This document shows positions 2,859-32,000 of a stretch of DNA of 32,000 nucleotides, in pieces. The notes below the pieces were generated by a model. That model was not told where the DNA came from. It worked only from the letters and a program-made list of their open reading frames with translations, and ran no database searches. A program made the position numbers and the translations under genes. The stretch is from a cyanobacterium endosymbiont of Epithemia turgida isolate EtSB Lake Yunoko. Lineage in GTDB: Bacteria; Cyanobacteriota; Cyanobacteriia; Cyanobacteriales; Microcystaceae. Numbering within the stretch: the stretch's first letter is position 1; every line of letters starts with the position of its first letter. The DNA lies in assembly GCF_000829235.1 (NCBI RefSeq), contig NZ_AP012549.1, positions 2,730,001 to 2,762,000 of the forward strand. Direction: 5' to 3'.

Positions 2859-4275
2859 TTAAAAATTAGTAAAATTTATGAATCCATAAGATCTCTTTTA
2901 AATTAACTCAAATTTATTGTTTATATCTTCTAATGTTCCTTGCTAAAAAGATAATATTTTTTCTTATTTAAAACCTCTTTAATAGCGTTTTATCCCTAAT
3001 TAGCAAGGTTTTCTATACCACTCAATTTATTTTAACAGTCTTGATACCTAGTTCTATTTTTTTTAGAATTATTCTAAATTCTTCTGATAATTGATGTATT
3101 TCTTAGAGACGGGTTTAATTTTATGAGTCTAGTTTAACTTATATATATTTCTTTGATGCTGGATTTGTTTAATCTTAACTTGATTTTTAAGTTCTATAGT
3201 TTATTATTTAAGAGGGTTTAAATTATTTAATTAAGTATTGACTTATTTGATGATGTGATATGTATTTGCTGCCACTTAAGTTTATGACATTAATTTATTC
3301 ATATTTATAGGATTTTATTAAATATAGAGAAATATTTTTAATCTTTTTTAAAGTTTCTTCCTCCCAAGCTTCTGACTATTTTGCTCCTTCTTAAAATTTT
3401 CCTGTTTTTCAATTATCACCATCATTTTTTGATATAAATCTACTAACACTACATAATACTAAATATAGTTATAAAAACTAACTTAGAATAAGAGGGCAAT
3501 AGTCTAGAGAGAAATGATGTATAGAAAATATTATTTAGTTCCACCTCTTAGTTTACTATCTTTTTAAGATAGCATTTTCTTTTTTAAAAATTTTATAAAT
3601 CAACTTTTTAAAAACCTTCTCTTAATATAATTAGAGTTGATTCTTATGAAAATAAAATTATCAACCAATAAACTGCCTAAAAAATTAGGTCACAAATTAA
3701 AATTAAAGACCAGCAGATAGGCAAATATAGACATAAACGACAGTAGTCGATTGGACAGGTAGAGAAAATGATATTACTCAAAAAAGTTTAAGATCAAAAT
3801 ATATAGCCTTTCGAACAAGAAATATTTATTAAAAATAAAACTTTTTTAATAAAAAACTAGATAAAAGATATTCAGAAGTTGAAATAGATATATAGCTATA
3901 TCAATAAATAAAAAAAAAATTAAAAATTATATCAATGATAATGAGTTAAATTTTCCGTATTTTTTTCATGATAGTATGGCAATTAAATTTAGTATGATAA
4001 CTTCCCTGTCTTTTAATTATAGCAATTTAATCAAATGTAAACTATTTCAACTGCTACGGTTTTGATATCTGTAATTTTTGACCTAAATCTTCAAGTATTA
4101 TTTCTATTTTTTGTTCAATAACTCCATTGACGATGATTAACCCTGAGATTGACGGCGCTCTCTTCTCAAGGCAAAGCCAATCTTCGATAGTTAATTTATT
4201 GTTTTCATGGAATTTATGGTGGCTGAACCAAAATAAATCCAAGTTTCTATTCGGTCTATTTTTTTGACAAATCAA
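2859..4275 (-). mobile_element. Decayed ISL3-family transposase gene, relic copy A (many stops and frameshifts)
   Basis: Minus-strand translation ending at the stop 2861-2859 reads EKILSF*QGTLEDINNKFELI*KRSYGFINFTNF*. This matches the ISL3 transposase C-terminal signature (E-G-x-N-N-K-I-K-x-x-K-R-x-x-Y-G-F-R-N-F-x-N-F). Nt 2883-2963 align with copy B 16419-16499 at roughly three quarters identity by hand, and 3263-3294 align with 16845-16876. The upstream extent is inferred from typical transposase length. The 73-aa ORF 4054-4275 (..SGLIIVNGVIEQKIEIILE..) may be the N-terminal remnant. Confidence 0.55.
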
Positions 4276-4717: not shown

Positions 4718-6211
4718 TCACGTTTTTGCTTCTTCCACAAGGAGCTTAGAGCGCTTAACTATTTCGGGAATGCTAATAGGATAGTCTCCGGTAAAACAAG
4801 CAGAACAGAAACTATTGGGATCTTCTTCCGTTACTTCTAACATTCCTTGCCAGCTCAGATAAGCCAAAGAATCTACTCCTATTTGTCTTCCAATATCAGC
4901 AACAGATTTGGTGGCTGCTACTAGTTGAGTTTGGCTATCAGTATCAATCCCATAAAAACATGGATGAGTAACAGGGGCGGAAGAAATCCTCATATGTATT
5001 TCTTTAGCACCAGCATCACGCAAGGCTTTGACAATTTTACGACTAGTGGTTCCTCGTACAATAGAATCATCTACTATAATCACTCGTTTGTCTACAAGTA
5101 CATCTTTAAGGGTATTCAACTTCATTTTAATCCCCAACTCTCGCATCTGTTGAGTGGGTTGGATAAACGTCCTTCCTACATAACGATTTTTTATTAATCC
5201 TTCCCCGTAAGGAATTTCTGTTACCTGGGAAAATCCAATAGCTGCGGGAATACCAGAATCAGGAACTCCCATCACTAAATCAGCTTCAACAGTAGATTCT
5301 CGCGCCAATTGTCGCCCTAAACGTACCCGATAACTGTACAGAGTTTCACCGTGCATTATGCTATCAGGACGAGAAAAATAAATCATTTCAAAAATACATA
5401 ATTTCCGTTTCGGTTGAATTACCCAGTGGAAAGATGATAAGCCATTTTCGGTAATCCAAACTAATTCCCCTGGTTCTACATCCCGTAGATAGTCTGCTCC
5501 AATAATGTCTAAGGCACAAGTTTCTGAGGCAAGGACATAACGAACAGGATCTCCTTCCAAAATGCCGATAACTAAGGGACGAATACCGTTAGGATCTCTT
5601 ACTCCCATTAATCCCACTGGAGTTCCAATAGCTAAGCTATAGGCTCCAGAACACAGTTGAAACGCACTAATAGCTGCTTCTAACCACTCTTTTCCCTTAT
5701 CAACTTCTTGGGCAATTGCCACTGCAATCATCTCTGAATCGGTGCTGGTATTAAAGTTACAGCCTCGTTTTGTGAGGATCTGACGTAACTCTAGAGTGTT
5801 AACAAGGTTGCCGTTGTGTGCTAGAGCTAGATGACCTAAACGGGTGTTGAGAACAGCAGGTTGAGCGTTAGCTTTTTGACTAGATCCTGTAGTTGAATAG
5901 CGGGTGTGTCCAATGGCTATTTTCCCAGTCAATTTATTTAAAGTAGATTCTTTAAAAACTTGGGCAACTAACCCCATGTCCTTGTGAATGTGAACACGAT
6001 TTCCATCTAAAGTGGCAATTCCAGCCGATTCTTGTCCTCGATGCTGCAGGGCATAAAGTCCAAAATATGTTAGTTTTGCAACACTTTTTTCGGGGGCATA
6101 AAGTCCAAAAACACCACAGGCTTCTTCGAGTTTTTCAGAGAATCGATAGAGAGGGTTAATGGTATCAGTCAGTTGCTGATGAGCATTAAGAATCTGATCG
6201 TTAGCGGTCAT
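4718..6211 (-). CDS. purF: Amidophosphoribosyltransferase (glutamine PRPP amidotransferase)
   Basis: 497 aa. A propeptide is followed by the Ntn nucleophile CGVFG. It has the PRTase motif VIIVDDSIVRGTT and Cys residues of the 4Fe-4S type (CFYGID, CSACFTGDYP). AGGAG lies about 14 nt upstream of the ATG. Confidence 0.95.
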   Translation of the reverse strand: MTANDQILNAHQQLTDTINPLYRFSEKLEEACGVFGLYAPEKSVAKLTYFGLYALQHRGQESAGIATLDGNRVHIHKDMGLVAQVFKESTLNKLTGKIAIGHTRYSTTGSSQKANAQPAVLNTRLGHLALAHNGNLVNTLELRQILTKRGCNFNTSTDSEMIAVAIAQEVDKGKEWLEAAISAFQLCSGAYSLAIGTPVGLMGVRDPNGIRPLVIGILEGDPVRYVLASETCALDIIGADYLRDVEPGELVWITENGLSSFHWVIQPKRKLCIFEMIYFSRPDSIMHGETLYSYRVRLGRQLARESTVEADLVMGVPDSGIPAAIGFSQVTEIPYGEGLIKNRYVGRTFIQPTQQMRELGIKMKLNTLKDVLVDKRVIIVDDSIVRGTTSRKIVKALRDAGAKEIHMRISSAPVTHPCFYGIDTDSQTQLVAATKSVADIGRQIGVDSLAYLSWQGMLEVTEEDPNSFCSACFTGDYPISIPEIVKRSKLLVEEAKT

Positions 6212-6623
6212 GGATAGGATTTTGCTCCTGAAAGAGGCGGGTCTGGTAACTCTTGCTCAAATCGGTCCAGTAAAGAATACACGAACATGCTTTAACAGCT
6301 CTTTAACTTAATCTCTTACCAAAGTTTTTATCTAAGGTTAAACGATTATAGGGTGTAGCCCTCTAATTTGTATAGACCAGTGATACTAACTTTAAACTAT
6401 TGTCGAGCATCCAATATTAATTAGATGCTTGACAATACCGACTAAATTTTTATAAAAACTATTATAACGTGAGTCAACAATCTGCTATTAATTGTACTTC
6501 TGCATATTTTTTTCTATCTTTATAAAATTTAATTAATGAGAACGAGAACACTAAGCTGTGTTTAAACATTTAAAAAACTTAAGTATAAAAGTCTATTGGA
6601 GACGTTTATGCTTTTATTTAAGT

Positions 6624-14699: not shown

Positions 14700-15018
14700 A
14701 CTAAAAAAGTATAAATTAAAGTAGGTTTATAGAACATCATCGATTATATTAAAAATTGACTAAATTAAAAACGAAGTTAGAATATTTTTTTAGTAAAGCC
14801 TAGATCAAGTATTAAGATTAGTAAAATAGGCTGATTGGTATTAAAAATTTTATTACTTGCACCTAATTGTGGAATAATCAGGTGTTAAGTTGGAGTAATT
14901 ATTTTCTATTCTTACTCAAAGGACAACTAAATAGATAGGAAAAAGTATTAACAATACATTAAAGCTTATTAATAGGAGAGCTTATGTATTTATAAATCTT
15001 GTATTTTTAAATTTTTAA
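14700..15018 (+). mobile_element. Decayed, 5'-truncated ISL3-type transposase relic, copy C
   Basis: Nt 14938-15018 translate to GKSINNTLKLINRRAYVFINLVFLNF*. They align base-for-base with copy B (EGINNKFEVDKKRAYGLRKFVNFKL*). The upstream stretch acctaattgtggaataatcaggtgtt matches copy B aaacctgtgggatggttatatgttg, and another anchor lies near 14711-14750. clpB starts at 14291, so at most ~730 nt can remain. Confidence 0.5.
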
Positions 15019-15213
15019 AATTTAAAATTTAGCATATAATTAGTTAATTTTATATCCTAAATCAGGTGTAACCATTTATTTAAAATTTATGAAAATTATA
15101 TTAATTTTAAAAAATAAATTAGTTTGACTAAAAATTTTATTATTGGTTTTGTAAAAATATTTTTGTGACTATTAATTTATTATCAGATTTTTAAATTATT
15201 CGACTTATTTTAA

Positions 15214-15684: not shown

Positions 15685-16323
15685 ATGACTATGAAATCAT
15701 TGTTTATTGTATTAGAAGGAATTGACAAGGCAGGGAAGTCGACTCAAGCAGAATTATTAAAAAACTATTTTCTTGCTCACCAACAGCAAGCTGTTATTAG
15801 CTCTGAACCTACTGATGGGCCAATTGGTAGATTAATTCGTGAAGCTATGCAAAGTAAAATCATTGCCATTAAACAGAAAGAAAGCTTTGATGAACAAATG
15901 GCTTATTTATTTACTGCCGACAGGCATTATCATTTATTTAATGACATCAATGGAGTTTATAAATTAATTAATAAAGACCATACTCATGTCGTAGCAACCC
16001 GTTATTATTTTTCATCTTTAGCTTATAATTGCAATACTAAAAAAAAATTTACTTTTGTAGCAACATTGAACCAAGAATTTCCTGATCCTGATGTGGTTTT
16101 TTATATCGATATTCCATTAAAAATAGCTTTGTCTAGACTAAGTAATTCTTCTGCCAAAGAAATATATGAGACAGCAAAAAAACTTAGAAAAGTTAGACAT
16201 AACTACGAAAATATTTTTAAAACTTATGAAGGGAAAATATTTAAAGTAGATGGAACTGAATCTATAGAAGCAATACATAAGAAGATTTTAACTTATCTTC
16301 AAGAAACTTTTAATTTTTATTAA
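15685..16323 (+). CDS. Thymidylate kinase-like P-loop kinase (divergent dTMP kinase family)
   Basis: 212 aa. The P-loop is LEGIDKAGKST (family G-x-D-G-x-GK-S/T-T). It also has SEPTDGPIG, FTADRHYH and VVATRYYFSSLAYN. The last corresponds to the D-R-Y/H...S..AY segment but reads TRY. A lid/C-terminal KVRHNYE-like segment is present. Confidence 0.7.
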   Translation: MTMKSLFIVLEGIDKAGKSTQAELLKNYFLAHQQQAVISSEPTDGPIGRLIREAMQSKIIAIKQKESFDEQMAYLFTADRHYHLFNDINGVYKLINKDHTHVVATRYYFSSLAYNCNTKKKFTFVATLNQEFPDPDVVFYIDIPLKIALSRLSNSSAKEIYETAKKLRKVRHNYENIFKTYEGKIFKVDGTESIEAIHKKILTYLQETFNFY

Positions 16324-16365
16324 ACCCTAATGTTATATAAAACTGAAATAATGTAGAATCAACTA

Positions 16366-17700
16366 GTGACGTGCAAAAACAAAACACTTTAAAGTTTAAA
16401 ATTCACAAATTTTCTAAGTCCATAAGCTCTCTTTTTGTCAACCTCAAATTTATTGTTAATACCTTCTATTTTTTCTGCAAGATAGATAATATTTTTTTCA
16501 ATGCAACATATAACCATCCCACAGGTTTTTAGCTATGATAAATAAGTTTTAAAATTCTAAAGCTAGTTTCAATATTCCTGATAACTATTTTTCGGTGTTT
16601 TAAAAACTTGTTCTATATTACTGTAGTTTTAAAATAACTAACGAGGTGTTATATACTTAGTTTGACTTAGCTTTTTATTATTTTTTTGAGTTATTATTAA
16701 TTAATATATGTTTGTTGTTATTTACCATTAATTTATTATCAATACTAAATTTTTAACTATTATTTTTAAGCTCTTTATTTTGTATTTAAATTATTTTTCG
16801 TTAAGTACCCAATTGAGCATTTACTTGTTTCATTCAATGGAATAAATTTGTTGCTACTTCAACTTATGATATTGATTGATAATTTTTTTAAAAAAAAATT
16901 TTTAAAATCTATATTGCTATTTTTAATTTTAGTAAAAATATGTTTTCAAAAAACGTTTAGCTATTCGTTGTCTCTATTTTTTTATTTCTATAATTATTAC
17001 ACTGACTTTTAACACAAAAGAATAACTTTTGGGGTTTTAAAAACGGTATTTTTATTAAAAATTTACTATTTTTGTAGGTTTTTGAAAAACCTACAATTCT
17101 TTATCTAATCTAAATTGTAGAGTATCATCTCTATTTTTTCTTAAATTACTTTATTATTTTTATTTATATTCTTAATGTTACTAGGTAAGAATATTTTAAA
17201 GATTATGGCTTTAATTTTTTTAGTATCTATCTTAAAAATAACAGTTAAAATTTACTGCAAATTTATTTACGTATTGATTGTATCTAATTTAATAATAATC
17301 TTTTTCAAGATAAATAGATTATATATCAAAGATAATTTCATAGTAATTAAAGTGATTAATTTTTGATTAACATATTTTTTCACTAGTTAAATACAATAAA
17401 TATAAGTTGCTGTTAATTTTAATTATCACCCATTTTTTAGATCTAAAAAATGGGTGATAAATGGTTAAGTTTTATAAATTTAGAGTCTCATTTATTAAGC
17501 CGAGTTAAATATCTAATATTATAGATATAAGTTAAATCAGGGTGCTAATCTTAACATAATTTAACTTCAAAATAAACATTAATAGAGTATTAGATGTATA
17601 ATAATTACAGCTTTTTAGAAGGCGATTGTTGATATTCAAACTTTGTATCCATGTTGTAACTTTTTACATAAAAGGTTCGCTAAAACCAAGTTAATTATAA
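16366..17700 (-). mobile_element. Decayed ISL3-family transposase gene, relic copy B, filling the tmk-like / thyA-like spacer
   Basis: Minus-strand translation ending at the stop 16391-16389 reads LKTCGMVICCIEKNIIYLAEKIEGINNKFEVDKKRAYGLRKFVNFKL*. The final 36 codons have no stop, so this is the best preserved of the copies. It is homologous to copy A at two anchors. The 1388-bp spacer matches the size of a full ISL3 element, but the ends are not defined. Confidence 0.55.
17423..17460. repeat. Perfect 38-bp palindrome ttatcacccattttttAGATCTaaaaaatgggtgataa
   Basis: The reverse complement is identical to the sequence, checked base by base. It is centred on AGATCT, lies inside IS relic B and sits 252 nt upstream of the thyA-like ATG. 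Confidence 0.9.
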
Positions 17701-17711
17701 GTAATTAATTC

Positions 17712-19220
17712 ATGAGAATCACTCAATCAAAATATCAAGTTGAATATATTCCTCATTATCAACCTAATCAACTGATCTGTGGTCATGGACAGACTGCTAT
17801 CATTACTGGATGGACAGTTCGACAGTCAGTAGCTAAACGTTTAAACCCAGAAGACTATGCAGTTATTGGTAATTTATATAGTCCTACTAGGGGAATTAGT
17901 CCCTTAATTCGTAATTTGTTAGCTAACCCTCATGTCCGATATTTAGTGATTTTACAGGCAACAAAAGAAGATAAAAATTCTGGAGGATGTCAATGTTTAT
18001 TAGATTTCTTACAACAAGGTTTTAGACAAGGAATCAGCGATATAGGCAGAAATATATGGGTAGTCAATTCGAAGATAACTGGATATATTGACATTGAAAT
18101 TCCTGCTGATGTCTCAGAGAATTTGCGTCAATCTTTAAAATTCAAAGAAGCAAAATCAATTGAAGAAGTAATGAATATAATAAAAGAATTTAATCAATTT
18201 AAAATAGAACCTTGGGGTGAACCGTTAACTTTTCCTGAAAGAAAAAGTTCTCCAACAGTTTTACCAGGTCCTAGATATGGCCATCGGATTGAAGGAAAAA
18301 CTATTGCAGAAACCTGGGTTAAAGTATTACATAGAATTAAAACAATAGGAACAATTAGACAGACAATCTATGGACAATGGCAAGAATTAATTGATCTAAT
18401 AGCTATTGTTACCGATGAACCACCAGAGTTTTATTTTCCTGAGCCTAATTATTTACCTATTAAAAGAAATTATCTCAAAGATTATATTGAACAAATATTA
18501 GACGATGCACCCAAAAAAGAAGGAGTAAAATATACATACGGACAACGGTTAAGATCATGGTTTGGACAAGACCAAATTGAACAACTAATTAATAAATTGG
18601 CAGGAGATATTGATTCATCAAGAGCCGTAATGTCATTGTGGGATGTAAACGATTATGAAGATAGTGATAGTCCTCCTTGTCTTAATCATATTTGGGTGAG
18701 AATTGTTGATAAAGAATTATCTTTAACTGCTACATTTCGTAGTAATGATATGTTTTCTGCTTGGCCATCTAATGCAATGGGATTAAGATTTTTGCAGCAA
18801 TTTATCCAAGATAAAATTATCACAAAATCCAATTATAGTCTTACTTTAGGACCTCTAATTATTATTAGTCAAAGTGCACATATTTATAGTGACTGCTGGG
18901 AACATACACAACAAATTATTGATACTGAATATACAAAAATAAATCAGAGACAAAATTTTAATGACCCCAGTGGCAACTTTGTGATTTCGGTAAAAGATAA
19001 TCGTATTGTTGTTGAACATTTAACTCCAGGTTCAGGAGAAATTATCAACTGTTATTCAGGTAAACTTGCTCATAAACTGTATAAAAAAATTGCCTTAAAT
19101 TCCCCTAGTATTCACATTGAACATGCGATGTACTTAGGGAAAGAATTACAAAAAGCAGAATTATGTCTAGTTAAGAAATTAAATTGTTACCAACAAGATC
19201 TACCATTAAATTTTTCATAA
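17712..19220 (+). CDS. Three-domain thymidylate-synthase-like protein: MtrA-like N-domain + ThyA-like core + DUF4346-like C-domain
   Basis: 502 aa. Residues ~25-105 (AIITGW...AVIGNLYSPTRGISPLIRNLLANPHVRYLVIL...LLDFLQQG) follow the MtrA pattern (AVITCG...[32 protein letters not shown]...). The core has YGQRLR (276-281), SPPCLNH with Cys323 (nt 18678-18680), RSND (343-346), Asn354 exactly 11 residues after the Arg as in E. coli R166/N177, and SAHIY (388-392). The C-terminus DPSGNFVISV...HAMYLGKELQKAE resembles DUF4346. Domain names are from memory, not from an HMM run. Confidence 0.8.
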   Translation: MRITQSKYQVEYIPHYQPNQLICGHGQTAIITGWTVRQSVAKRLNPEDYAVIGNLYSPTRGISPLIRNLLANPHVRYLVILQATKEDKNSGGCQCLLDFLQQGFRQGISDIGRNIWVVNSKITGYIDIEIPADVSENLRQSLKFKEAKSIEEVMNIIKEFNQFKIEPWGEPLTFPERKSSPTVLPGPRYGHRIEGKTIAETWVKVLHRIKTIGTIRQTIYGQWQELIDLIAIVTDEPPEFYFPEPNYLPIKRNYLKDYIEQILDDAPKKEGVKYTYGQRLRSWFGQDQIEQLINKLAGDIDSSRAVMSLWDVNDYEDSDSPPCLNHIWVRIVDKELSLTATFRSNDMFSAWPSNAMGLRFLQQFIQDKIITKSNYSLTLGPLIIISQSAHIYSDCWEHTQQIIDTEYTKINQRQNFNDPSGNFVISVKDNRIVVEHLTPGSGEIINCYSGKLAHKLYKKIALNSPSIHIEHAMYLGKELQKAELCLVKKLNCYQQDLPLNFS

Positions 19221-19711
19221 ATAAAGGTGCATTATACTCTTATTTTTATAAGAAAATATAATAGACCTTGAACAAATAAGTGAAAGTTACATAGAATTAA
19301 TTGATATTCTTTGTTAGATATATGTTATCTGAATAAACTAAAGTAATAAAAAAGTCAAAGATTTTTTTCAGTAACTTATAGTAAATACTAGTGTGCTCTT
19401 TTTAAAAAAGTGGTTAGAATAAATGTGCAAATAATTAGAAATATTCTGTCCTTAAGTATTTGCTTGAATGTGATTTGATAAATTTTAGAAAATAGTTTAG
19501 TTTTAAAAACTCACCTTTAAGTCTCGATAAGACTATTGGATTGTCAAAAAATACATTAAGAGGAAAGAATTATGTACTTTTTAAAATAGGTTTTAAAATT
19601 TTTCCTTGTATTCTGATAATAGAATTATAACCTCTAATTTTTTGATCAAAAAATTAACTATTTATTCTTTTTGACAATGATTATCATAAGGGATAAAGAC
19701 ATCTATAAAAA

Positions 19712-20161
19712 ATGAAAAGCAAACGTGAGTATATGAAACTTAAAATTATAAAATTAAGAGAACAAGCAGTGATTCCTAGATATGAACATAACAATGATTC
19801 AGGTCTTGATTTAATTTCTATAGAAGATGTAGAAATTGAATCAGGAGAAAGTCGATTAGTTAAAATAGGGATTTCTATTGAATTACCTCCAAATACTGAG
19901 GCACAAATACGTCCCAGAAGTGGATTAGCATTAAAGCATAAAATCACTGTTTTAAATACGCCAGGGACTATCGATGAGGGATATCGAGGAGAGATTGGAG
20001 TTATCTTAATTAATCATGGAAAAACATCTTTTCAAGTAAGACAGGGAATGAGAATTGCTCAAATGGTTATTGCTCCAGTAATTCGAGTTACTCTTGAAGA
20101 AGTAGATTATTTGAGTGGTACAACCAGAGGACCTAGAGGATTTGGCTCAACTGGTTTTTAA
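19712..20161 (+). CDS. dut: dUTP diphosphatase (trimeric dUTPase)
   Basis: It has all five dUTPase motifs: [29 protein letters not shown] and [10 protein letters not shown]. The true start may be the second Met (MKLKIIKL, nt 19733). Confidence 0.9.
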
Positions 20162-20257: not shown

Positions 20258-20791
20258 ATGAAACTATTAGAAGAACAACGACCAACCTGGGATGAATACT
20301 TTTTAATGATCGCTAAACTAGCAGCAACGAGATCAACCTGTTTAGCATTTCCTGTCGGTGCAGTTATTGTCAAAGATCGACAAGTATTAGCCACAGGGTA
20401 TAATGGTTCTCCGTCAGGATCAGTTCACTGTACTGCCCAAGGATTTTGTTATAGCGAATTAAGTAGCTGTAATGCTTCTAACAGCTTACCGTCCCGTGCG
20501 GTTCATGCAGAAGCAAACGCAATTGCCCAAGCAGCAAGACATGGAATTACCACCGATGGTTCGGTTGTTTATATTACCTTAGAACCCTGCATTTCTTGTT
20601 TGAAATTAATTATTTCTGCTGGTATAAAAAAAGTTTTCTACGAAACCGAATTCAATAGCGGAGATAAACTTTTAGTTAGAGATTCTTTTGTCAAAGATGG
20701 TTTAGTGACTTTAACTCAAATTAGACTTTCTAAAAAAATGGCACAACGAGCCTCATTATTCCTATTGAATCCGATATCAATTGCTAAATAG
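20258..20791 (+). CDS. dCMP deaminase (ComEB/deoxycytidylate deaminase family)
   Basis: It has the zinc-binding motifs VHAEANAI and LEPCISCLKLI. The N-terminal WDEYFLMIAKLAATRSTC is typical of dCMP deaminases. Confidence 0.88.
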   Translation: MKLLEEQRPTWDEYFLMIAKLAATRSTCLAFPVGAVIVKDRQVLATGYNGSPSGSVHCTAQGFCYSELSSCNASNSLPSRAVHAEANAIAQAARHGITTDGSVVYITLEPCISCLKLIISAGIKKVFYETEFNSGDKLLVRDSFVKDGLVTLTQIRLSKKMAQRASLFLLNPISIAK

Positions 20792-25425: not shown

Positions 25426-25563
25426 GGTATTAAGTGTCTTGATTCTGTTGTTCTATAACCACGACTATGTCAACTTATCATATTGACAATTAACTAACTT
25501 AACTGGTCTCTGGAATCAATAACTGTCACAGTCAACAAATATTTATTGTCAAGACATAATAAG

Positions 25564-25635
25564 TGGGTCGCCTGGGATTCGAACCCAAGACCAATCGGTT
25601 AAAAGCCGAGTGCTCTACCGCTGAGCTAGCGACCC
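25564..25635 (-). tRNA. tRNA-Lys (anticodon UUU)
   Basis: The minus strand reads GGGTCGC-TA-GCTC-AGCGGTA-GAGC-A-CTCGG-CTTTTAA-CCGAT-TGGTC-TTGGG-TTCGAAT-CCCAG-GCGACCC-A. It forms a clean cloverleaf with a 7-bp acceptor stem and a TTCGAAT T-loop. CCA is not encoded. The top pair of the anticodon stem is a C-U mismatch. Confidence 0.9.
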
Positions 25636-28541: not shown

Positions 28542-29918
28542 ATGCCCAAGAGCCCTTTAAAACAGGCAATACATAGACTTCAGTCAGAACAAAGAAAATG
28601 GGCGGCTGTAGGTCAATATACGCCTAAACAGGTGAATCGATGGTTTAAATGGTTATCTCCTGGCCTCTTGGTCAAACGCTGGTTGCTTATCAGTATCACC
28701 GGTCTAATCTTAACTTTTTTAGGGTTAGCTGTTTTTCTTAAGTTAACCCCAGTGTATCGCTTGCTAGAGTGCATCTCTACCCTACTAGAATTTCTGACCA
28801 CTTATGTTCCTAATTATATTTCTGGTCCGTTAGCGATTTTATTAGGGCTATTTTTACTGTTATGGGGGCAAAGTCGTACCGTAGGATCAATTACCGAAGC
28901 ATTGCATCCTGAAGGAAATCAAGAACTTGTTGATCGTCTTCTAGCCCACCGTCGTCGAAACCGAGGACCGAAAATAGTAACCATTGGAGGAGGGACTGGC
29001 CTTTCAACTCTGTTAAGAGGACTTAAACAATATAGTAGTAATATAACCGCCATTGTCACCGTAACCGACGATGGTGGCTCATCCGGGCGGCTAAGACGAG
29101 AAATTGGTGTTCTTCCTCCAGGAGACATCCGCAACTGTGTTGCTGCTTTGGCAGATGAAGAAAAACTTTTAACCGAATTGTTTCAATATCGTTTTCAGGC
29201 TGGGGATGGACTCACTGGGCACAGCTTTGGTAACTTGTTTCTTACAGCTTTAACCGACATTACCGGAGACCTAGAACAGGCGATTGCAGCCAGTTCTAAA
29301 GTTTTAGCTATACGAGGGAAAGTTTTACCCGCTACCCTTAATGATGTCCGTCTCTGGGCAGAATTAAGTGATGGACGGTTCATTGAAGGGGAATCTAATA
29401 TTACTGAAGCCAGGGGAAAAATTGAACGTATTGGCTGTATTCCTGCTCATCCTTTAGCTTTACCAGCGGCTATGAATGTTATTAAAGATGCTGATTACAT
29501 TATCATCGGGCCTGGTAGTTTGTATACAAGTGTGATTCCTAATCTTTTGGTTCCAGATATTAGAAATGCTTTGATTAAAGCAAAGGTTTCCCGGATCTAT
29601 ATCTGTAATATTATGACCCAACCCGGGGAGACTGACGGCTATACTGTTAGTGATCATCTAAAAGCCATTGATCATGTTTGTGAGCAACGGTTATTTGATG
29701 CGGTTTTGATTCAACGTAGACCTCCCTCTCCGAAAGCGTTAAAACGTTATGCCCTAGAAAACTGTCATCCTGTTTTTCCTGATCGTGAAGAGGTGGCTAA
29801 ATTAGGCTGTCGTGTTATTTTAGGTAATGTGATGACCGAGGACGAAATTACCGGAAAGGTTAGCCATGACCCTCAGCGATTAGCTAAAGTTTTGTTACGC
29901 TGGTATAGTAGCAAGTAA
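28542..29918 (+). CDS. YvcK/CofD-like (UPF0052, gluconeogenesis-factor family) protein with N-terminal membrane segments
   Basis: It has [35 protein letters not shown] and [17 protein letters not shown]. Two or three hydrophobic helices lie in the first ~110 aa. Confidence 0.85.
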
Positions 29919-31540: not shown

Positions 31541-32000
31541 TTACTCATTCATGTTTTTATAAGTCGCCACCGCAGAAGGTGATATACGATTAAGATAACG
31601 AAAGATCCAATATTTCAAAACTGTATCTAAGATTACGGGAAAGGTCGCGATAAATAGAAAATTAAACTCTTGATTTTCTGGGAGTCCAAAGTGACGAGAA
31701 ACTCCTTGTAAAATTACCTCCCATCCGTGGGGAGAGTGAAACCCCACAAACATATCGGTAAAGAGAATAATCAAAAAAGCTTTAGCTGGATCACTTAACC
31801 CATAAAGGATTTCATCAAGAAAGGATCTAACCACTTCTATTTCTTTTTTACTAGTTACTATGACTACAAAGAAAGAAACAAAAGAGAAAATATCTGCGAA
31901 AATATTGGCAATAGAATCAACTCCCTGATGTCGATATTCATCAGTTATTTCTTCGGCTTTATGTTTAATTTTCTCCCTAATTTTTTCGGGAGAAAATTCT
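31541..32000 (-). CDS. pxcA: PxcA/CemA-family proton-extrusion (envelope membrane) protein, 5' end outside window
   Basis: The frame stays open upstream of the listed GTG to the window edge ([63 protein letters not shown]...). It has the hallmark [11 protein letters not shown]. Confidence 0.85.

Follow-up and report, generated by a model that had tools for sequence, protein, structure and literature searches.

Thymidylate synthesis is essential and is a target for drugs, and two forms of its enzyme, ThyA and ThyX, are generally recognized. The gene considered here lies in a stretch of 32,000 nucleotides (contig NZ_AP012549.1, positions 2,730,001 to 2,762,000; the whole of this stretch is referred to below as the window) from the cyanobacterial endosymbiont of the diatom Epithemia turgida, and it encodes a protein of 502 residues in which a ThyA core lies between an MtrA-like domain and a PterinBD-DUF4346 domain (here DUF4346). 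Each of the closest described systems resembles only part of it. The protein has the fold of canonical ThyA (PF00303), and Y94, C146, R166, S167, D169, N177, H207, and Y209 of the Escherichia coli enzyme are all kept, but its core is without R126, L172, F176, the tryptophans of the W80/W83 region, and the C-terminal tail, and the column of R127 is variable. With the short archaeal ThyA proteins (TIGR03283), it has in common a compact core that ends just past the SAHIY motif and the catalytic Cys, Arg, Asn, His, and Tyr; those proteins, however, are about 200 residues in length (the model has 201 positions), whereas here the core has a domain on either side. Likeness to MtrA, the subunit of methyl-H4MPT:coenzyme M methyltransferase that binds cobalamin (PF04208; structures 5LAA, 5L8X, and 8Q3V), resides in the Rossmann-type fold, in profile homology, and in the conserved motif of loop beta2-alpha2 and helix alpha2, to which Gly57 and Asn64 of the nucleotide-tail pocket of MtrA belong; unlike MtrA, the present protein is a fusion without a transmembrane helix, an mtr operon, or the meander motif, has Lys88 and Pro58 for His84 and Glu54, and falls under the Pfam threshold. 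The archaeal proteins covered by NF002128 contain both flanking domains in the same order, and DUF4346 is C terminal in NF002128 and TIGR00284 alike, but in neither does a ThyA core stand between domains. Finally, the DHFR-TS proteins of protists also join a thymidylate synthase to a second domain linked to the handling of folate; the flanking domains described here are not homologous to dihydrofolate reductase (DHFR), and Foldseek matches to DHFR-TS cover the thymidylate synthase part only.

On balance, we regard this fusion as the probable deoxyuridine monophosphate (dUMP)-to-thymidylate (dTMP) synthase of the cell, predicted from its sequence to work by ThyA chemistry, with the flanking pair probably supplying a cofactor-binding surface. 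We established the identities of its domains, its catalytic residues, its gene context, its conservation, and the selection acting on it. No paper describing the three-domain ThyA architecture was found in the literature. The gene is an ordinary, well-conserved orthologue of a catalogued and widespread cyanobacterial family, and neither a one-off fusion nor a new invention.

Domain architecture and predicted structure

Pfam, profile, and fold comparisons bear out the three-domain anatomy that a first-pass annotation had proposed for this open reading frame (ORF); the observation itself is confirmed, and the interpretation placed on it is supported in part. The DUF4346-like C terminus that it described is matched by PF14251 over residues 418 to 496, above the gathering threshold and with the whole domain covered (E value, 1.3e-23; 83.9 bits against a cutoff of 29.6; profile positions 2 to 86 of 86). 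Pfam Thymidylat_synt (PF00303) matches residues 270 to 408 (E value, 7.7e-17; 61.7 bits against a cutoff of 24.3), with only the center of the profile, positions 88 to 227 of 266, being aligned. Pfam MtrA (PF04208) reaches 12.5 bits on the 502-residue protein (E value, 0.12) and remains under its cutoff of 25 bits. Thus, two of the three hidden Markov model assignments pass outright, and the third, which fails on the single sequence, is rescued by other evidence given below. The sequence strings on which the annotation was built are located where it placed them, at residues 83 (ATKEDKNSGGCQC), 276 (YGQRLR), 320 (SPPCLNH, containing Cys323), 343 (RSND), 388 (SAHIY), 418 (DPSGNFVI), and 471 (HAMYLGKELQKAE).

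An AlphaFold2 model of the 502-residue protein, computed from a diverse alignment, is confident and compact (mean predicted local distance difference test score [pLDDT], 91.9; predicted template modeling score, 0.86), the latter value indicating a compact three-domain body. It supersedes an earlier run with close cyanobacterial sequences only, in which the ThyA core was poorly modeled (pLDDT, 67.7).

The ThyA core

The core is of the short archaeal type: the best NCBIfam model is TIGR03283 (thy_syn_methano), which matches residues 193 to 396 with an E value of 6e-40, and canonical ThyA models give values of about 1e-10 to 1e-14 on the same protein. Alignment of the core with E. coli ThyA by hhalign (probability, 97.7) pairs Y276 with Y94, C323 with C146, R343 with R166, S344 with S167, D346 with D169, N354 with N177, H390 with H207, and Y392 with Y209. 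Conservation was counted over 31 divergent relatives, with overall identity down to 29%, and each of these eight residues is kept in 29 or 30 of them (C323 in 30; N354, His390, and Tyr392 in 29). The complete ThyA catalytic set claimed in the first-pass annotation is therefore present and conserved, and Asn354 falls exactly 11 residues past Arg343, as claimed.

At the position of N177, Asn marks dUMP-specific and Asp marks dCMP-specific enzymes of the ThyA fold. The presence of Asn at this position makes the assignment of substrate sound, and dUMP, which had been put forward as the likely substrate, is supported as the predicted one by this residue and by the genes for thymidylate kinase (tmk), dUTPase (dut), and dCMP deaminase, which adjoin the fusion here and are recurrently linked to it.

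Elements that hold the folate tail in canonical ThyA are missing from the core. Ser residues (S349 and S353) stand in place of L172 and F176, which contact the folate tail, no Trp precedes YGQ in the core as a counterpart of the W80/W83 region (residue-level mapping in this region being uncertain), some 13 residues fewer than in E. coli ThyA separate the second strand from the YGQ helix, and the C-terminal tail that closes over the folate has given way to a helix and the DUF4346 domain.

Foldseek searches with the confident model returned enzymes of the ThyA fold with template modeling (TM) scores of 0.58 to 0.77 and identities of 16 to 20% throughout. The closest solved structures are small enzymes of 217 to 234 residues, led by the phage dCMP hydroxylase 9IQU and its flavin adenine dinucleotide (FAD)-bound form 9IQC (TM, 0.76 to 0.77) and followed by the CMP hydroxymethylase MilA, T4 dCMP hydroxymethylase, and canonical ThyA at about 0.58 to 0.67; E. 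coli ThyA scores 0.65, with a root mean square deviation of 3.0 Å. This ranking, in which hydroxylases and hydroxymethylases stand first, together with the want of a counterpart to the Trp80 region, which shields the exocyclic methylene intermediate in canonical ThyA, could suggest that the protein is another type of pyrimidine C5-modifying enzyme, a hydroxymethylase or a flavin-dependent hydroxylase, rather than a dTMP synthase. We consider this very improbable: the top matches are no more identical in sequence than canonical ThyA, and their rank, which stems mainly from their equally small size, is read as a size effect and not as a sign of flavin chemistry. Moreover, Asn354 argues for dUMP over dCMP, the gene is chromosomal and of the housekeeping kind, is linked with tmk, dut, and the dCMP deaminase gene, and has been kept in reduced genomes of 1.4 to 3 Mb, and the architecture was found in no phage. 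As a separate matter, the binding of FAD in 9IQC indicates that a ThyA-like fold can use flavin instead of folate; no paper on the 9IQU and 9IQC phage enzymes was found in the literature.

Members from Aphanothece, Rippkaea, and a Phormidium (P0045, P0050, and P0101) make up a cyanobacterial subclade that departs from the rest of the family at several positions that do not vary elsewhere, with GS-PCLNH for SPPCLNH, Ser for Arg304, and, in DUF4346, H-I-G-Y-L-G for H-A-M-Y-L-G; these differences suggest two subtypes of the enzyme.

The MtrA-like domain

Because the Pfam match of the single sequence to MtrA is too weak to stand alone, the assignment was tested in four independent ways. A profile of the N-terminal domain built from 19 divergent sequences matches solved MtrA structures with E values of 1.3e-8 (5LAA), 1.3e-6 (8Q3V), and 1.6e-4 (5L8X); Foldseek, used with the domain from the first AlphaFold model, places MtrA (5L8X and 5LAA) at the top, with TM scores of 0.62 to 0.68 normalized to the target. 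Residues 1 to 190, searched against 1.84 billion cluster representatives, retrieved 358 clusters, nearly all of proteins of 450 to 530 residues carrying the domain at the N terminus, and several relatives so retrieved reach 31 to 54 bits on Pfam MtrA, above the cutoff. Individual matches to PF04208 are made by 7 of the 31 divergent family members. Profile, predicted fold, and transitive homology thus confirm this domain as MtrA-like in fold, and the corresponding proposal of the first-pass annotation is upheld. A metagenomic protein of 862 residues (P0243, with nine cluster members) contains two MtrA-like domains in tandem before the ThyA core and DUF4346, the second of which scores 54 bits on Pfam MtrA.

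The most conserved motif of the domain is LYSxxxGIxxLxRNLLANP (residues 55 to 73), and W34, Y56, G61, N68, N72, and P73 are kept in at least 28 of the 31 relatives. In MtrA, the cobalamin site comprises His84 as the cobalt ligand, Glu54 as its hydrogen-bond partner, and a meander, 109-GAIPF(Y/F)xEN (Wagner et al., PMC4915002). The HMMER alignment places Lys88 at the position of His84 and Pro58 at that of Glu54, reduces the meander to Tyr-Ile, and does not keep Asn55. The His84 column contains Lys, Arg, Glu, Gln, or Leu across the family, and His is absent from it in every one of the 31 relatives aligned, so that the lack of an obvious His ligand remarked upon in the first-pass annotation is correct. 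The replacement of both His84 and Glu54 makes classic His-on corrinoid binding by this domain unlikely. The residues that line the pocket for the nucleotide tail in MtrA, T53, G57, V61, and N64, correspond to S57, G61, L65, and N68, within the most conserved stretch of the domain, and G61 and N68 are each kept in 30 of the 31 relatives. The domain appears to descend from a corrinoid-binding fold, with the cobalt ligands lost and the nucleotide-tail pocket kept; judged by these alignments, the protein is no MtrA as regards function: the fold is there, and the ligands are gone. A metal site at the pair C93 and C95 (GGCQC) was considered and ruled out because the family conserves neither of the two Cys residues.

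Some corrinoid proteins do without a ligand from the protein. Homology to cobalamin-binding MtrA, the common fold, and the conserved pocket residues could accordingly be taken to mean that the domain binds a corrinoid in the His-off state and that dUMP is methylated through a methyl-corrinoid or another nonfolate carrier. Of the readings weighed here, we hold this to be the least probable by reason of the losses of His84, Glu54, Asn55, and the meander, the want of a His in the ligand column anywhere in the family, the retention in the core of Tyr276 and of Asp346, whose E. coli counterpart D169 is a pterin contact, as methylene-pterin chemistry would expect, and the want of cobalamin-related genes in the vicinity.

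DUF4346 and the flanking pair

In the AlphaFold2 model, DUF4346 consists of three strands followed by two helices. Its motif, H471-A-x-Y474-L-G476-x-E478-L-Q-K481-A, contains three residues, H471, Y474, and G476, that are invariant or nearly so even when stand-alone DUF4346 proteins are included. Such proteins, of about 105 to 125 residues, do exist and carry an invariant H..Y.G.EL motif. No solved structure containing the domain was found by sequence, the best match being to an IclR-type regulator with a nonsignificant E value of 0.087. In NF002128, an archaeal NCBIfam model of 390 positions named MtrA, an MtrA-like region at about 142 to 259 is followed directly by DUF4346 at about 282 to 369, and in TIGR00284, a dihydropteroate synthase-like model, DUF4346 lies at the C terminus. 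These layouts indicate that the two flanking domains are a pair that recurs in the company of pterin-handling enzymes.

The stand-alone proteins occur in neighborhoods of two types, neither of which points to a function. In three related contigs (L008, L011, and L012), the gene for a 105-residue version (6001 to 6318 or 3010 to 3327) and the 3' end of a UvdE/AP-endonuclease-2-like gene overlap, with a dCTP-deaminase/dUTPase-like gene 3 to 4 kb away; another type sits amid glycosyltransferases.

By analogy with DHFR-TS, the Rossmann-type N-terminal domain and DUF4346 could make the enzyme bifunctional by re-reducing the dihydropterin product in place. A Rossmann-type domain with a conserved nucleotide-type pocket would suit this role, many cyanobacteria are without a recognizable DHFR (PMC1971073), and none of 80 loci has a gene for E. 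coli-type DHFR (folA) within 4 kb of the fusion. The last of these is weak evidence, since it covers only the 4 kb around each gene, and a 2007 table gives a candidate DHFR in some cyanobacteria; further, the domain does not have the glycine motif of dinucleotide-binding proteins, and searches of Pfam, NCBIfam, and other resources brought to light no homologue among known pterin and folate reductases. A built-in reductase is, in our estimation, improbable.

Proposed mechanism and supply of the cofactor

The mechanism that we propose follows that of E. coli ThyA, from which the roles of individual residues are taken by analogy. Cys323 would add to C6 of dUMP, whose phosphate would be held by Arg343 and Ser344, whose uracil O4 and N3-H would be read by Asn354, and whose 3'-OH would be held by His390 and Tyr392. 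The C5 enolate would then accept a methylene group from a reduced pterin carrier, and removal of the C5 proton, aided by Tyr276, would be followed by hydride transfer to give dTMP. As the donor, we infer 5,10-methylene-tetrahydrofolate to be the most likely candidate, and we would assign to the MtrA-like and DUF4346 domains the role of a single module that provides the missing surface for cofactor binding. With a short core that is without folate-tail contacts and flanks that are paired in archaeal proteins, this is the simplest reading of the evidence.

A number of findings weigh against it. The score on TIGR03283, 136.9 bits, is below the equivalog cutoff of 174.55, and the cofactor specificity of archaeal-type ThyA has itself never been established (PMC9931769 and PMC9012536); no biochemical data on any member of the family were found in the literature. 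Of the cross-subunit pair R126 and R127 of E. coli, the first corresponds to S303 and the second to R304, with Arg occurring in 3 of the 31 relatives at column 303 and in 6 at column 304; the pair is thus not conserved, and phosphate binding or the oligomeric state may differ. An equivalent of E. coli E58 is not assignable, the candidates being E225 (26 of 31) and Y258 (30 of 31). Last, a Woesearchaeota protein of 395 residues (P0224; L006 8001 to 9188), which can be aligned with the family along its entire length (E value, 8e-32), has a deletion of approximately residues 264 to 343 that removes the Cys nucleophile and Arg343 and leaves both flanking domains intact. This protein has the appearance of a derivative in which catalysis is lost, and the keeping of the flanks in the absence of the catalytic center suggests that the flanking module has a function of its own.

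This last protein and the loss of the cross-dimer Arg pair would also suit a thymidylate synthase whose flanking domains leave the cofactor untouched and act instead either as a scaffold for oligomerization, in place of the canonical ThyA dimer contacts, or as a nucleotide-binding module with an allosteric or regulatory role. The conserved pocket of the N-terminal domain, which in MtrA is the site that holds the nucleotide tail, and the existence of DUF4346 as a stand-alone protein point the same way. However, the recurrence of DUF4346 at the C terminus of the pterin-handling models TIGR00284 and NF002128 points to the cofactor, a core without folate-tail contacts requires that something replace them, and the gene context indicates no regulatory ligand; we therefore judge a scaffolding or regulatory role unlikely, though it deserves to be kept in view.

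The first-pass annotation had taken the flanking domains to suggest a nonstandard one-carbon donor. Nothing that we found shows a nonfolate donor, and the evidence is fitted equally well, and more simply, by flanks that replace folate-binding elements, so we do not draw that conclusion. A built-in carrier and a regulatory function, which the annotation offered besides, stand as candidate roles of the flanks. There is, in our view, a slim chance that the module holds a carrier other than free methylene-tetrahydrofolate, such as a tightly bound pterin or a His-less corrinoid, and so constitutes a third route to thymidylate. If that were true, the family would represent a mechanistically distinct route, together with the uncharacterized archaeal short ThyA proteins from which it derives, and would extend it to roughly one in four cyanobacteria (8 of the 31 genomes in the COG table of PMC5954106), including nitrogen-fixing endosymbionts and the nitroplast lineage. 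Quite apart from this, a core of the archaeal type, the donor for which has never been established, in a bacterium of the folate world offers an experimentally easy route into the question of the donor, and the N-terminal domain illustrates the reuse of a corrinoid-protein fold after the loss of its cobalt ligands.

Genomic context, distribution, and selection

The coordinates of the fusion, its domains and key residues, and the neighboring genes of nucleotide metabolism are collected in Table 1.

Table 1. Positions in the window of the three-domain ThyA gene, of codons discussed in the text, and of adjacent genes
Feature	Position	Strand	Remarks
ORF of the fusion	17712..19220	+	Single ATG-to-stop frame, 502 aa, stop codon included; MtrA-like + ThyA core + PterinBD-DUF4346
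MtrA-like N-terminal domain, Rossmann type	17733..18266	+	About residues 8-185; profile, Foldseek, Pfam on relatives
ThyA core, short archaeal type	18267..18947	+	About residues 186-412; TIGR03283, hhalign, Foldseek
PterinBD-DUF4346	18963..19199	+	Residues 418-496; Pfam E value, 1.3e-23
Pro58 codon	17883..17885	+	Aligns with MtrA Glu54 (HMMER alignment to 5LAA)
Lys88 codon	17973..17975	+	Aligns with MtrA cobalt ligand His84 (HMMER alignment to 5LAA)
Cys323 codon	18678..18680	+	Predicted catalytic nucleophile; E. coli C146
R343-S344-N345-D346 through N354	18738..18773	+	Predicted dUMP phosphate and uracil-recognition segment; E. coli R166, S167, D169, N177
His390 and Tyr392	18879..18887	+	Predicted deoxyribose 3'-OH contacts; E. 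coli H207, Y209
tmk (thymidylate kinase)	15685..16323	+	Upstream neighbor; PF02223, E value 8e-43
dut (dUTPase)	19712..20161	+	Downstream neighbor; PF00692, E value 1e-30
dCMP deaminase	20258..20791	+	Second downstream neighbor; PF00383, E value 1e-27

The neighboring genes encode the enzymes by which dUMP is provided and dTMP is used. The Rhopalodia endosymbiont has exactly the order seen here, tmk, fusion, dut, dCMP deaminase; in Crocosphaera it is fusion, dCTP-deaminase-like gene, dut, dCMP deaminase, and in UCYN-A4 it is fusion, dut, dCMP deaminase. Among 80 species, a dCMP deaminase gene lies within 4 kb of the fusion in 31, dut in 23, a dCTP-deaminase-like gene in 18, and tmk in 17. In Crocosphaera subtropica, the dCTP-deaminase-like gene between the fusion and dut encodes 228 residues (L002 9555 to 10241); it is gone here and in the Rhopalodia endosymbiont, and tblastn detected no remnant of it in the 490-bp gap at 19221 to 19711.

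The family comprises 1,457 clusters at 90% identity, and full-length orthologues are 62 to 93% identical. Relatives of the fusion are present in the genomes of at least 358 species, nearly all cyanobacteria among the 80 loci listed, a taxonomic picture that is biased toward cyanobacteria by the use of a cyanobacterial alignment in the genome scan. Members include Crocosphaera, Microcystis, Snowella, Prochloron, many Nostocales and Oscillatoriales, and UCYN-A4; outside the cyanobacteria, they include an Anaerolineae protein in which all three Pfam domains are called and many metagenomic lineages. The full three-domain architecture was found in no phage or virus, where matches were to the ThyA core only. 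The usual annotation is "thymidylate synthase" or "DUF4346 domain-containing protein," often with PF00303 and PF14251 assigned; the rarity implied by the first-pass annotation is thus not supported, the gene being the standard orthologue of a family for the most part already annotated. In a COG table of 31 cyanobacterial genomes, ThyX is assigned to 23 and ThyA to 8 (PMC5954106), numbers that sum to 31, as expected if each genome had exactly one synthase. A 2007 SEED table credits Anabaena variabilis, Nostoc, and Synechocystis with ThyX but not with ThyA. In a large share of cyanobacteria, among them Microcystis, Crocosphaera, many Nostocales, the nitrogen-fixing diatom endosymbionts, and UCYN-A, the role of thymidylate synthase appears to fall to the three-domain ThyA.

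Identity is highest, at 91%, to the orthologues in the Epithemia clementina and Rhopalodia gibba endosymbionts, followed by those in the endosymbiont of R. gibberula (88%) and in "uoEpiScrs1" (84%). The fusion is kept in all of the reduced genomes of this lineage (1.4 to 3 Mb), including those of the diatom endosymbionts and UCYN-A, and ratios of nonsynonymous to synonymous substitution rates of 0.13 to 0.30 for the N-terminal domain, 0.13 to 0.19 for the core, and 0.14 to 0.23 for DUF4346 indicate purifying selection on all three, even in reduced endosymbiont genomes.

Other features of the window

The genome of the Rhopalodia gibberula endosymbiont, or spheroid body, can be aligned collinearly with the entire window (1 to 32000) at 82 to 90% DNA identity, and the window appears to derive from another, related endosymbiont of the spheroid-body type. 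Unusually long intergenic gaps, including one of 1.4 kb upstream of the fusion, contain dispersed AT-rich repeats at 2815 to 2940, 14942 to 15019, 16351 to 16476, and 17419 to 17677. The first and third of these form a direct repeat pair with 71% identity, the second is an inverted repeat of 16388 to 16465, and the last is matched by pieces of the Rhopalodia locus from other positions; the repeats may be decayed mobile elements or the pseudogene debris of a shrinking genome. A CofD-family (2-phospho-L-lactate-transferase-like) protein encoded at 28542 to 29918 has some 140 extra N-terminal residues ahead of its Pfam domain, and a CemA-family ORF near the right end (31541 to 31834) matches profile positions 134 to 229 of 229 only, so that its start may lie further on or be miscalled. 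The window also contains purF, purL, clpB, glk, tsaE, a gene for an SbcC-like ATPase, and tRNA-Lys(UUU) at 25563 to 25635.

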